Shown in pieces: positions 21,525-26,301 of a stretch of 64,000 nucleotides of DNA. The position numbers and the translations under genes are program-made. The notes beneath the pieces were generated by a model. That model worked only from the letters and a program-made list of their open reading frames with translations. It was not told the DNA's origin and did no database searches. The DNA is from Methanotrichaceae archaeon (GTDB lineage Archaea; Halobacteriota; Methanosarcinia; Methanotrichales; Methanotrichaceae). Numbering within the stretch: the stretch's first letter is position 1; every line of letters begins with the position of its first letter. The DNA is taken from the NCBI GenBank assembly GCA_963813075.1, contig CAWEXU010000004.1:32001-96000 (forward strand), given 5' to 3'.

Positions 21525-22527
21525 CCTCCTTCTCGCGGTGAGGGCAAAGAAGGAGGATGTAGCTGCCACTCTGAAGATCATCATTGAACAGGGATTGCTG
21601 GATCGCAGCCGAAAGGTGGTGGAGAAGAGCAGCTATGTGGAGATACCGGTCACAGATTTTGTGCCCGGCTTTCAGGTCATATCTCAGAACAGTCCAGTAT
21701 TCTACCGGAAGACGCCGGATCTGACAGAAGCCCTGAAGAGTGAGCTTTTGCCAGAGGAGATAGAGCTTCTTCCTCGAGGATGGCAGATCCTGGGAGAGGT
21801 CATCGTGGTCAAGATCCATCCCCGCCTTAACCTTTACCAGGGCCGCATAGCACAGGCTCTATTGGATTTTTACCCCCGCTGCAAGACCGTCCTGCGTGAC
21901 TATGGCATAGAGGGCCCCTTCAGAGAGCCGATGCGGGAGACGATCGCCGGCACGAAGACAGAGACTGTACATCGAGAGAATGGAGTCACTTTTAACCTCG
22001 ATGCCAGAAAGGTGATGTTCTCGGCAGGCAACCTGAGTGAGCGCATGCGCATGAGCAATCTTGGCCGGGGAGAGTATGTGGTGGACATGTTCGCCGGAAT
22101 TGGCTATTTCTCCATTCCCATGGCCGTTCACTCCCGGCCCAGCAAGATCCTGGCCATCGAATTGAACCCCAATGCTTACCACTATCTCTGCCAGAACATC
22201 AGAATGAATCGGGTAGAGGAGATAGTAGAGCCCGTTCTGGGTGATTGCGCGAAGGTGACTCCAGAGGGGGTGGCGGATAGGGTGGTGATGGGCATGGTCC
22301 AGGTAACCGATCGATATCTTCTAAAGGGGATCGGCGCTCTGCGGCCGGGCGGGGTGCTGCACTATCATCAGACTATACCATCAAGTATGCACCCCAAAAA
22401 GGCTATATGCGACATCGAGGAGGCGGCGAGGGCTATTGGAAGGCGATTCCAGATTCTGAGATGTATTCGGGTGAAGAAGTACTCTCCAGGAGTGGTCCAT
22501 TCGGTAGTGGATGCCAGGATAGAATAG
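21496..22527 (+). CDS. Trm5/TYW2(Taw2)-family SAM-dependent tRNA modification enzyme
   Basis: TETVHRENG, KVMFSAGNLSER, VDMFAGIGYFSIP, ELNP, KKYSPG. Confidence 0.85.
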   Translation: MSKATPKRASLLLAVRAKKEDVAATLKIIIEQGLLDRSRKVVEKSSYVEIPVTDFVPGFQVISQNSPVFYRKTPDLTEALKSELLPEEIELLPRGWQILGEVIVVKIHPRLNLYQGRIAQALLDFYPRCKTVLRDYGIEGPFREPMRETIAGTKTETVHRENGVTFNLDARKVMFSAGNLSERMRMSNLGRGEYVVDMFAGIGYFSIPMAVHSRPSKILAIELNPNAYHYLCQNIRMNRVEEIVEPVLGDCAKVTPEGVADRVVMGMVQVTDRYLLKGIGALRPGGVLHYHQTIPSSMHPKKAICDIEEAARAIGRRFQILRCIRVKKYSPGVVHSVVDARIE

Positions 22528-22683
22528 CCGTAATGGCGAAATTGCATCGGGATAGAAAGGTCATGACCGCTGCCCGAATGTGCTCAAGAAAACGGATAGG
22601 AGAAGGAAGTCTGTGATAAGGCAGCAGGTATCGAGGAAATGGATCGATAGATTAATAACCACCTGTTGCAAGGTTAGAGGCGA

Positions 22684-22756
22684 AGCCCGGTAGTGTAGCG
22701 GTCAATCACAGGAGGCTCTGGACCTCCTTACCTAGGTTCGAATCCTGGCCGGGCTA
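22684..22756 (+). tRNA. tRNA-Gln(CUG)
   Basis: Acceptor AGCCCGG/CCGGGCT, anticodon arm GGAGG-CT-CTG-GA-CCTCC, GGTTCGAATCC T-arm; no encoded CCA. Confidence 0.95.
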
Positions 22757-22791
22757 CTTTTCCGTATTCGAATTATGCTGTGAAATTCCTT

Positions 22792-23118
22792 TCACGGATC
22801 AATGCGATCTCTCTTCAACTCATCCATGGCCTCTGGGGTGAGCCTGATCTCTGCCAGCTGGATTGCACCCATCGAGGAGATCATCCTGGTCATCATCTCT
22901 GATATCCTCCTCCCCAGGTCTTCCTCTTTGCTGAATAGGGCCATGGATAAAGCATAGCCAAGGTTGTATGCCGTCCAGCTGGCATAGGTGAAGTGGACCA
23001 TCAGATCCTCCACCCTCCCTTCAACCCAGGGGCCATCCGATTCCTCGCAGATCACTCTGGATCGAATCTGATTCAAGCTCTGGATTTCCGCCTCAAACTG
23101 AACTAAACCCTGTCTCAT
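22792..23118 (-). CDS. Hypothetical protein
   Basis: 108-aa ORF after GATGTGA; no family recognised. Confidence 0.55.
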   Translation of the reverse strand: MRQGLVQFEAEIQSLNQIRSRVICEESDGPWVEGRVEDLMVHFTYASWTAYNLGYALSMALFSKEEDLGRRISEMMTRMISSMGAIQLAEIRLTPEAMDELKRDRIDP

Positions 23119-23229
23119 AAGATATCACATCCTTTGTGCTTGGTTTGCTTTCGGCCGTTTTTTCTGTTCCATGCAGCTGTCCAGTTACTGTTTGCCAAAT
23201 AGCTATTGTTTATTAGGCACTCATTCCTA

Positions 23230-24550
23230 GTCAACTACCGCGTCCTGAAGGGCGCGGCTTGCGACTACGCAAAAAGTCGTGTCGCGTCTGGCGGGCTGAC
23301 ATTACCGCCCTGAGACTCCAGGATATACCTCAAGTCTCGTGTTCGGTGCTCTATGTTCATAGCACCAGCTCTGTCGGCATGGGTTTCGTAACCGCATTTT
23401 TCGCATCGGAAGGCTACACCGCAGCGGTTAATTCGGCTGATGTGGTTACATCTGGGGCAAGTTTGGGAAGTATATTCAGGATTTACATAGATTACCGCTA
23501 TCCCGGCTTCTTTAGCTTTGTATTCCACGAAAGCCTGTAGTTGCCTGAATGCCCAACTGCTATGCTCGTACCTGAATTCTGTAGAGACTTTGTTTCCCGC
23601 TCTCTTCCTGATGCCCGTCAAATCTTCCATGCCTATTACCGAAACGTCATTATCTATAGCAAATTCTATGAGATCCCTGGATACCTTATGGTTGACGGCA
23701 GTCATGAACCGTGTCTCTCGACCTGCTATTTTTCTAAGAGTTGTCATAGAAGATCGAGTGCCCAAATATCGACCGCCTGCTTTCTGCAATCTCCGGCGTT
23801 CCTTGGATCGGATGTTTCGGTGATTCTTGATTTCACCACCTGCGAAGAATTTGCATTGCTTGTCCGTGGTAGATGCAACCGCGAGACAGTTAATACCGAC
23901 ATCAACACCCATGAAAGTGGATGCATCAACTATATTCTTATCTGGAATATCCTTTGCACAGGCCAAATGGAAAAAGTAAGCTCCGTTCTTATGTAAACAA
24001 AGCTTGGATGCCAGATATTTCCAGGACCCGTCTAAATATCTCTGAGCATACTGGTAATTCCAGAGCTTATATCTCCTTCGACCCGCTAATGTGGTTATGC
24101 TCAAGGTATCTTTGGATAAGCCAAAATCGCGTTCAAAGGAGAATGTAGCCGAGGTTGGATCGAAATCGAGTAATTGCCATTCTGATTCTCTTTTGTCGAT
24201 CTGACTCTGAAGTGTTTTGTAAGCTCCTGAAACCTGGCGAGCTACATTGCAAGCCATCTGAGATTTCAGGTTAAGATTGTTCCGCAGATGCTTGTAAGTG
24301 GCTTTTTGGATAAGTCCACTTCCAACAGGCTTGCCAATTTCAAACACGATTTGCGAGGCATAATTCATGCCTTGAGAGAACGCTTTTAGCAACTCTGCTA
24401 GATCATTATCCGATGCATCTAATTTCAGGATAATGGTCTTTGTGAGCTGCATGGCTTGTTATATTCACTTAATGCTATATATTTTTATCTCAGGTGAAGA
24501 TATTTATACGCGCTCCTCCCCACCGCAAACGATGGAGACTCCGCGCTGCT
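23230..24550 (-). mobile_element. IS200/IS605-family tnpB-only (IS1341-like) element; left end approximate
   Basis: Right end ...CAAGCCGCGCCCTTCAGGACGCGGTAGTTGAC at 23230; subterminal hairpin at ~24510-24547; no tnpA. Confidence 0.85.
23265..24452 (-). CDS. tnpB: TnpB RNA-guided nuclease
   Basis: RuvC GVDVG / MEDL / ADRAGAMNI intact; TSQTCPRC..CEKC zinc finger. Confidence 0.95.
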   Translation of the reverse strand: MQLTKTIILKLDASDNDLAELLKAFSQGMNYASQIVFEIGKPVGSGLIQKATYKHLRNNLNLKSQMACNVARQVSGAYKTLQSQIDKRESEWQLLDFDPTSATFSFERDFGLSKDTLSITTLAGRRRYKLWNYQYAQRYLDGSWKYLASKLCLHKNGAYFFHLACAKDIPDKNIVDASTFMGVDVGINCLAVASTTDKQCKFFAGGEIKNHRNIRSKERRRLQKAGGRYLGTRSSMTTLRKIAGRETRFMTAVNHKVSRDLIEFAIDNDVSVIGMEDLTGIRKRAGNKVSTEFRYEHSSWAFRQLQAFVEYKAKEAGIAVIYVNPEYTSQTCPRCNHISRINRCGVAFRCEKCGYETHADRAGAMNIEHRTRDLRYILESQGGNVSPPDATRLFA

Positions 24551-24734
24551 GCGAGTTGAAGGTTGTTGTCTTAATCGCGAGGCTGCAAGCTGGGAGGAGA
24601 CCGTTCGGGATATCGCACTAACTATATTTAAAAATATCATCAGAAGAATAAATTAACCATAAGGTTGCGCCATTTTAATAGTTGCCCTCTGTCCCGAAAA
24701 CTAGATATATCTATAACGAATAAAAAAGTATTTT

Positions 24735-25180
24735 GCCGCGTGATACCCTCGAATAGATGCGGACTGATAAGCCGATTAAGCCTTTGCCGGCCAATCATCC
24801 TGGCAATGGGTGATTGATCTCATCCTCCATCAAAGAGCCAGATCAATCAAGCTGGGCCGGATGGCGCCGCACGAATAAAGGTGCAGGTCTTCGGCAGTCT
24901 GGCGAAAACGCCATTGAGCGCAATATAAGATCCTGTCGCCAAGTCTGCATGATGATGATCGCGGAGCGGGTAGTGCGAAGGAATGAGCCATGAAAGATCC
25001 CTCACCACCGGTGATCGGGTCCCCGTAAAAAGGGCGCTGTGCAAGAATCCAGTGCTGTCTGGCTTCTTCCTCGCATTGGCTGAGGGCGGGATGAGACAGC
25101 CACATAATATGCGGATCTGTTTCCTCTTGAGGGGAGCGCTGTGGCCTGGCGTTTGTCCTGCCTCTATCTCACCTGCTAAT
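24735..25180 (+). ncRNA. Candidate large structured ncRNA, family unknown
   Basis: Nested long-range helices with G-U pairs on + strand, upstream BRE/TATA-like motif, no credible ORF. Confidence 0.55.
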
Positions 25181-25210
25181 CCAATTTTCCTGAAATTCCC
25201 TTTTCAAGCA

Positions 25211-25244
25211 AAAAATTTATATCATACCACTATCATAAGGTTAG
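25211..25244 (+). promoter_or_regulatory. hsp20 promoter (BRE/TATA) and HSR1-like operator CTATC-N5-GTTAG
   Basis: AAAAATTTATAT then CTATCATAAGGTTAG (25230-25244). Confidence 0.5.
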
Positions 25245-25275
25245 TATGCTAAAGTAATTGTGAGGTGAAATAGAT

Positions 25276-25863
25276 ATGTGGGACAAGAAGTATCCATCAA
25301 TATTCGATATATTTGAGAGTTTCACAAAAGGCTTCCCCTTTGAGAGGAAGGAGAGGTTCGAGGATGATTGGTTCAAAGAGCCCTTTGAGAGCATGATCCA
25401 GAGGTTCGAGGAATCCATGCCCAGCGAGTTCAATGAACTGATTCGCGAGGAGGAGACACCCTCTGGCGTATCTCGCCGCTATGGGCCCTTCGTCTATGGC
25501 TTCAGCTACACCGCAGAGCCGGGAAAGGAGCCCGTATTCCAGGAGTTTGGCAACATCAAGCCCTCCTACCGGGGAATTGAGCCCAGCCAGGGCAGAGAGC
25601 CACTGGTCGATGTCATGAGCGAGAAGGACAAGTTCAAGATATTCGTCGAGCTTCCAGGCGTCGAAAAGGAAAAGGTGAAGCTGGATGTGGCAGAGGACAG
25701 CGTGGAGATCAAAACCGATGACGAGAAGAAGTTCTACAAGATGATATATCTGGACTCCACCGTAGATCCGGACAGCGCCAAGGCCTCCTACAAGAACGGC
25801 ATATTAACCCTGGAGCTGGATAAGAAAGAGACGAGAAAAGGAAAAGAGGTGAAGATCGACTAG
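25276..25863 (+). CDS. hsp20: Archaeal small heat-shock protein Hsp20
   Basis: GPFVYGFS, EFGN, REPLVDV, ELPGV, ASYKNGIL. Confidence 0.95.
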   Translation: MWDKKYPSIFDIFESFTKGFPFERKERFEDDWFKEPFESMIQRFEESMPSEFNELIREEETPSGVSRRYGPFVYGFSYTAEPGKEPVFQEFGNIKPSYRGIEPSQGREPLVDVMSEKDKFKIFVELPGVEKEKVKLDVAEDSVEIKTDDEKKFYKMIYLDSTVDPDSAKASYKNGILTLELDKKETRKGKEVKID

Positions 25864-26301
25864 GAGGATCCAATAGGTGAACAAATGGGCGGATCGAAGA
25901 AGGGATTGAAAGCTAGAATATCCTTTCGGGCATCCGTTCTGACATCCATTCTGGATGCATCCGGAATAGTGGGATGGACGGGGCGGTGAGACCAGGTGGC
26001 AGGGCGCTCCTGTCTTGCCCCTGGGATGGATAGGTCGGTGATCTGCCTGGGTTTGACCTGATGTGATGTGTTCTGCTCAACCTTTTATTAATCAGTATGA
26101 AGCAATAACTTGAGCAATTGGCTCCCTATACAGAACAGAGTATATCACCAATTCTATGCAAAATTGCAGGATTTCTTTTACATATTATACCTAGATAAAG
26201 GCTACATGAAATTCATATGATTCAAAATATGAGTATAATAATCTAATAAAAAGCCAATGTGAAAAACAACTACTTAAATCATTCCGTACCATGTAGATTA
26301 C

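Follow-up and report, generated by a model that had tools for sequence, protein, structure and literature searches.

Twin four-way-junction heads in a probably undescribed family of large non-coding RNAs from Methanotrichaceae

What does the GC-rich interval between a TnpB element and the hsp20 gene encode in a Methanotrichaceae archaeon? The window analysed here is a stretch of 64,000 nucleotides from this genome (GenBank assembly GCA_963813075.1, contig CAWEXU010000004.1, positions 32,001 to 96,000 of the forward strand), and all coordinates refer to it unless a locus is named. A previous sequence-only reading of the interval had proposed a two-domain, independently transcribed non-coding RNA (ncRNA) of a possibly undescribed class, perhaps linked to stress through hsp20. 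Our analysis indicates that the interval encodes a real and probably undescribed plus-strand ncRNA of ~445 nt with its own archaeal promoter, and that this RNA belongs to a family that is conserved and probably expressed. All motifs and helices listed in the sequence-only reading are present where it placed them. What it overlooked is that the RNA is one of a multi-copy family and carries two duplicated perfect four-way junctions. The features of the locus are collected in Table 1.

Table 1. Features of the RNA gene and of its neighbours (positions in the window)
Feature	Position	Strand	Details and basis
RNA gene, subfamily I (hsp20-locus type)	24735..25178	+	~445 nt; homology limits, RNA-library contigs
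Promoter block	24694..24734	+	BRE 24695-24700, non-canonical TATA-like box 24702-24709, conserved downstream stretch
Domain 1	24735..24964	+	RNAalifold on 26 orthologues, pair counts; varies among subfamilies I-IV
Domain 1 helices		+	closing 24736-40/24960-64; 24757-65/24942-50; 24771-75/24891-95 enclosing three-way junction; hairpin 24900-13
Domain 2	24965..25177	+	closing helix 24966-70/25172-76 (subfamily I); two arms
Head A, perfect four-way junction	24994..25057	+	mutual information, pair counts
Head A helices		+	H0 24995-6/25055-6; H1 24997-25000/25017-20 and inner hairpin; H2 25021-23/25032-34, U-R-A-R-A loop; H3 25035-39/25050-54, UG-started loop
Head B, duplicate of head A	25093..25154	+	arm 25084-90/25157-63; column-by-column match; somewhat degenerate in the window copy
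Head B helices		+	H0' 25093-95/25152-54; H1' 25096-98/25118-20; H2' 25121-24/25133-36; H3' 25137-41/25147-51
U-rich tail	25183..25206	+	from sequence; pyrimidine-rich in orthologues
hsp20	25209..25863	+	gene 25276-25863, own BRE/TATA 25209-25223; Pfam/NCBIfam; neighbour outside the RNA
IS605-family element	23230..24555	-	tnpB 23265-24452; Pfam/NCBIfam; ends from empty site in G021
Conserved 108-aa protein	22792-23118	-	in 81/105 family genomes, nearly always single copy

Conservation among orthologues sets in at the promoter block and ends just past the last helix. The block contains what we take, from established knowledge of archaeal promoters, to be a B recognition element (BRE) and a TATA-like box, and it is common to most copies of the family (pattern match in 72 of 115, the pattern itself fixing the first positions of the block). 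Among metagenome copies outside the training set it was found in 32 of 60, versus 22 of 1600 shuffles. In a scan of the genome with a position weight matrix the best four matches are RNA copies, which also made up the training set of the matrix, and the fifth copy scored only 15.4. This recurrence agrees with the earlier proposal of an independent transcription unit. The plus strand, also as proposed, was assigned because of the promoter position and of G-U wobbles within the covariation. The U-rich tail is likely to act as an archaeal terminator. A sigma-70 promoter/terminator scan was set aside, since archaea are outside its scope. No credible open reading frame had been noticed in the interval, and the comparison of orthologues bears this out: 465 of their 486 indels are not multiples of three, no long frame is held in common, and Pfam returned nothing for the two overlapping open reading frames tested within the RNA region. 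A protein-coding gene or pseudogene was therefore rejected. The promoter motif also gave a weaker match (26.8) at two other sites of this genome (contig C31, position 37217, and contig C12, position 25609), ahead of two paralogous secreted-looking proteins, a possible common regulon.

Taken alone, the RNA sequence folds at chance level. Its minimum free energy is -162.8 kcal/mol (z -0.75), with 26 of 100 shuffles equally good; the minus strand gives a z of +0.82. For 12 orthologues z lies between +0.2 and -3.4, the minus strand doing equally well in some cases. Because the single sequence folds no better than shuffles, the structural case rests on homologues. In a plain MAFFT alignment of 27 cores, which was not fitted to any structure, pairing holds in 94.7% of cells and both sides have changed in 17 of 38 pairs, so that the compensatory changes whose presence had been proposed as a check are indeed found. 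None of 500 shuffles reached this value, and slid controls stayed at or below 52%. Applied to 102 copies, the refined structure has 95.2% of its 4169 cells paired, with compensatory changes at 34 of 42 pairs; no shuffle out of 500 came as high, and slid controls did not exceed 47%. These latter figures lean to the favourable side, as the copies had been aligned to the first model and the structure was revised once the covariation had been viewed; relatedness of the copies inflates the shuffle test as well. RNAalifold applied to the 26 copies at the hsp20 locus yielded 86 consensus pairs, 35 of them changing on both sides.

The helices of the sequence-only reading fared differently in the 26 hsp20-locus orthologues. 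The closing helix of domain 1 pairs in 149 of 156 cells and the 24787/24855 helix in 132 of 154, while the core of the domain-2 closing helix is likewise supported. The 24757/24942 helix pairs in only 120 of 204 cells of the automatic alignment, yet re-pairs by eye in a shifted register. For the 25054/25094 helix, 149 of 182 cells pair, with systematic C-A breaks, and its native partners covary elsewhere; it is a cross-pairing between duplicated modules, a by-product of the duplication. The ATGATGA stretch, previously read as C-box/K-turn-like and as a possible L7Ae site, is kept in none of the 25 other orthologues, which have a variable A/G-rich bulge in its place, so a box C/D or K-turn RNA was rejected. 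Domain 1 occurs in four recognisable variants, and 12 of the 102 copies fit none of the patterns used. An anti-Shine-Dalgarno role for the subfamily I loop was also considered and dropped: the 11-nt complement is present at none of nine plausible starts, and several orthologues have lost the loop.

Mutual information over the 102 copies corrected the first register of domain 2 and revealed a perfect four-way junction at the tip of both its arms. A column-by-column match between the two heads shows that they arose by duplication. The head A junction pair is C-G in 48 copies and U-A in 45, and model positions G47 and G49 are invariant in all 102. A minimal head of about 65 nt could be defined. 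The single-head model found nine of the ten heads of this genome; the one missed is head B of the window copy. As an out-of-sample test we used metagenome loci among the matches listed to a 25-nt head-A pattern. All 80 score on the model, head B was found in 58 of 68 (versus 2 of 1600 shuffles), and 70 of 71 have a Watson-Crick combination at the free junction pair. The loops of H2 and H3, which resemble T-loops, probably dock onto each other to form a compact surface. One copy, in genus g18 (L086:1450-1671), seemingly consists of two heads only, without domain 1, and is possibly a minimal form; it has an AT-rich promoter-like stretch just upstream, and its head B carries the long loop of head A.

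Metatranscriptomes give a weak hint that the RNA is transcribed with the predicted ends. The stretch was found in 14 RNA runs from many studies, and contigs were compared over positions 22500-26100 for four runs of four studies, one contig reading like a paralogue. The first run has a single 423-nt contig (24748-25170) and nothing else. In the second, cover extends over 24741-25172 with one short divergent piece of hsp20. Cover in the third lies solely within the RNA, and the fourth also contains pieces from relatives of the flanking genes. The contigs agree with the ends of the transcript foreseen by the sequence-only reading, but carry neither strand nor level and have no DNA control.

The RNA is widespread in its host family. 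Near full-length matches of 68-83% identity occur in 16 other genomes of the genus (61 genomes searched), and this genome alone has five copies. A covariance model built on a 171-nt core gave 355 matches in 83 of 105 Methanotrichaceae genomes, covering 12 of 16 genera with 1-13 copies per genome, and none in 76 genomes from four other families of the class; these counts come from genome samples under strict filters, so a zero means not found rather than shown absent. In a phylum sample of 150 genomes the two-head model gave only one marginal match (E 0.003). The single-head model gave two, one within a leucyl-tRNA synthetase gene (chance) and one a decayed fragment. Another match, in genome G123, reads like SRP54 coding sequence and was taken as chance. 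The decayed fragment, from head A, lies in a genome of another family (G215, L346:1465-1561) by a transposase remnant, reflecting either horizontal transfer or bin contamination. A loose gapped-pattern scan of all genomes, which does not bound the host range, yielded at least 120 matches. Of these, 89 loci were scored; the nine strong matches among them fall into Methanothrix, Methanotrichaceae or Methanosarcinales records or two IMG/VR contigs, and six of 40 other gapped-pattern loci likewise scored on the model. On both IMG/VR contigs the copies are complete and adjoin a tyrosine integrase gene, and one of the contigs encodes ParA as well. A search with the promoter pattern found no viral contig.

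At one orthologous locus the pairings persist in copies from different genera and with as little as 68% identity, which argues that selection acts in place. Elsewhere the family turns over. Among the 131 distinct copies examined, 41 are at the hsp20 locus and 90 are dispersed, with varied orientation and company. Recent duplicates (among the matches listed) have little in common beyond the region from the promoter through the last stem, and their boundaries vary by 5-15 nt without visible target duplication. Other pairs among these matches are alike in flanks and heads and differ in domain 1, which points to recombination. One empty site was found, its flanks diverged. Neither the orientation nor the downstream gene of the dispersed copies is constant, an argument against action in cis. 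Some copies (L028, L078, L110, L128 and L141) lie immediately next to the 3' ends of histidine-kinase/receiver genes that are paralogues of one another, and recombination between these could spread the RNA gene. Beside another copy of this genome (L037, contig C31:240900-242740) lie a LigD-like gene, with a ligase domain by Pfam, and what is presumably a Ku-like gene.

The only recurrent neighbour is DUF1699, present within 1.5 kb of 17 of the 90 dispersed copies in four or more arrangements. For the 256 kb examined, about 0.6 cases would be expected by chance, estimated at roughly six genes per 2.6 Mb. The gene for MC1 adjoins seven of the 90. DUF1699 (PF08004) is an unstudied multi-copy family found in 148 of 151 genomes of the class, with 1-21 copies. 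Its model consists of an alpha/beta domain and a three-helix domain resembling a helix-turn-helix (HTH), and fold searches turned up nothing clearly similar (no Foldseek match at E 0.001; a best VIA Z of 6.3, with HTH-like matches at Z about 5-6). No RNA was found near 19 DUF1699 genes of other families.

Does the RNA belong to a known class? In a search of the whole window with Rfam 15 at the gathering threshold we obtained two tRNAs only; within the RNA region the best hit (E 0.24) is snoRNA-level noise, and at seven other loci, six of them with a copy, no match fits the RNA. The proposal of a large structured ncRNA outside Rfam is thus upheld. RNase P and signal recognition particle (SRP) RNAs, already discounted in the sequence-only reading, share the size class and an archaeal host, but are separate genes here, their single true copies (RF00373/RF01857) being encoded on contigs C6 and C5. 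A retron or group II intron RNA was rejected, since no reverse transcriptase occurs among the 129 nearest neighbours of dispersed copies. As for Y RNAs and tRNA mimics, we found no TROVE gene in this genome (83% complete), and ARAGORN calls no copy at eight loci. We found no description of the RNA in the open-access literature, to which the search was confined; supplements of motif screens could hold the family. The RNA probably represents a new class, as it matched none of the known classes against which it was tested, a standing that would fall if it proved to be a GOLLD-like cage. To our knowledge, large ornate ncRNAs have been described almost only from bacteria. The archaeal case adds a family whose genes number up to 13 per genome and share one promoter type, and an internally duplicated perfect four-way junction, in hosts that drive the conversion of acetate to methane in digesters and sediments. 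The alignment, the two models and the minimal head make the RNA directly testable.

What might such an RNA do? With somewhat less than even confidence, we favour a trans-acting host ncRNA that would bind two copies, or a dimer, of one protein, serving as a protein scaffold or decoy. The family would be host-encoded, independently transcribed, Methanotrichaceae-wide and subject to birth-and-death evolution, each transcript joining a variable 5' domain to two homologous junction heads. Several observations point this way: long conservation at a fixed locus argues for a benefit to the host, the loss of single copies together with variable copy number for redundancy, and the changing identity of the downstream gene for action in trans; two equivalent heads whose loop and junction bases are invariant would most simply be two binding sites for one partner. 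CsrB/RsmZ and the E. coli HU-binding naRNA4 are multi-copy protein-sequestering or nucleoid RNAs. Their redundant copies, repeated binding modules and trans action would make them the closest analogy in mode of working, although they have no sequence or structural relation to the RNA described here.

The leading candidate partners would be two chromatin-type proteins with genes near many copies, MC1 as a junction binder and DUF1699 as a binder or as a regulator of the common promoter. A more specific version appears improbable, in which the twin heads would imitate branched DNA, binding or titrating MC1 (a nucleoid protein) or DUF1699, and swappable 5' domains would set the role of each copy. 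If true, it would be the first large modular ncRNA multigene family of archaea and would add an RNA layer to chromosome organisation in acetoclastic methanogens. MC1 prefers DNA four-way junctions, which it binds with a dissociation constant of about 2.5e-8 M (PMC6776556).

A number of points weigh against the scaffold or decoy explanation and its candidate partners. Those MC1 data concern DNA and not RNA. The z-scores of single-sequence folding are weak. No copy was detected in 22 of the 105 family genomes, several of them near complete, which makes the RNA dispensable, and decayed copies occur. DUF1699 and MC1 are themselves multi-copy, many of the neighbour cases being of common ancestry and not independent, and variable islands could gather both RNA copies and DUF1699/MC1 genes. 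Moreover, all 67 genomes of family f3 contain DUF1699, although no copy of the RNA was found in them, and the DUF1699 and MC1 genes of this genome are not near its RNA copies.

Among the rival explanations, an RNA-only homo-oligomer or cage, in which identical junction strands could swap within or between molecules, is unlikely. GOLLD, ROOL and OLE are similarly several hundred nucleotides long, heavily structured and stand-alone. GOLLD is described with a conserved 3' part and a variable 5' part (bioRxiv 10.1101/2024.12.08.627333), a layout recalling that of our RNA. The integrase-linked copies on the two IMG/VR contigs fit this idea too, as does the cross-module helix, 82% paired in subfamily I. 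However, Rfam gave no match for the present RNA, which forms an archaeal chromosomal multigene family with a common promoter and a perfect four-way junction in duplicate. The best 60 mutual-information pairs include no convincing long-range or kissing pair. Nor was any preference for tRNA islands or phages found: tRNA genes lie at only one of eight loci scanned, and neither plasmid (72,556) nor phage (50,697) records contain a match.

A selfish or hitch-hiking non-autonomous element, whose structure would serve its own spread, is a doubtful proposition. It would account for the 1-13 scattered copies per genome, the empty site, the limited extent of similarity between recent duplicates, the swapping of domain 1 between lineages and the decayed fragment in a genome of another family. 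On the other hand, the promoter lies upstream of the transcript and yet travels along with it, contrary to what an RNA intermediate would give. Neither a common target duplication nor a fixed boundary could be seen, and no reverse transcriptase, TnpB or transposase family is consistently adjacent among the 129 neighbours. Long-term conservation at one locus likewise does not fit this explanation.

We give little credence to a trans-acting binder of a metal or cofactor, with junctions as in the NiCo (czcD) riboswitch and T-loop-type docking as in cobalamin riboswitches. The heads may resemble the cobalamin aptamer, the H3 hairpin with the A-rich/GGG string presumably being like its T-loop arm. 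The order of helices is different, however, and the RNA is not a 5' leader; with no match to RF00174 either, the cobalamin riboswitch was rejected. The heads share with the NiCo riboswitch four helices round one G-rich junction with conserved guanosines, at which NiCo binds Co2+ (bioRxiv 10.1101/2025.08.02.668262). By the same account NiCo needs non-canonical G-A junction pairs, whereas the junctions here are fully paired, occur as tandem heads in their own transcription unit and have no czcD downstream; the NiCo riboswitch was thus rejected as well. Neither RF02683 nor RF00174 matches any of five copies even at E 10, and there is no expression platform or metal-gene context.

The last rival, in which the RNA would control hsp20 in cis as a leader or stress switch or would serve the adjacent TnpB as its RNA partner, is largely refuted: 15 of 16 full-length orthologues have hsp20 as the following gene and 41 of 131 copies sit at this locus, but a U-rich tail and a separate hsp20 promoter intervene, the RNA has been cut to about 40 nt (G005 and G031) or has decayed (G022) in three close relatives with hsp20 and its promoter intact, TnpB is absent at orthologous loci, and the RNA lies at the left end of the insertion sequence (IS) on the opposite strand, the IS ends being dissimilar to it. 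The suggested stress link through hsp20 is accordingly doubtful. The three relatives retain five, three and two other RNA copies, respectively.

Nor was any tie to TnpB borne out. The IS605-family element, inserted about 140 nt upstream of the RNA promoter, is seen at this locus only here, and no TnpB was found at the orthologous loci of 16 genomes (one contig ends 150 nt upstream); its position next to the RNA is a strain-specific insertion unrelated to the RNA. An omegaRNA would be encoded at the right end of the IS, overlapping the 3' end of tnpB, and would co-occur with tnpB. The RNA is found beyond the left end and on the opposite strand, shows no similarity and occurs in orthologues that lack the IS, so this identity was rejected. 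The element itself has no tnpA, has the target pentamer TTCAA on its own strand, and is represented in the genome by two further full-length copies (contigs C13 and C31) and six right-end fragments.

At orthologous loci the gene for the 108-aa protein lies divergently upstream of the RNA. The protein has no Pfam, NCBIfam or Atlas match. It was rejected as an obligate partner, as it is present in six of seven RNA-less genomes of genus g22 and was not found in 16 genomes of g21, ten of which have the RNA. Finally, a palindrome at 25230-25244, just past the hsp20 TATA box and better matched in relatives, presumably resembles the Archaeoglobus HSR1 heat-shock operator.
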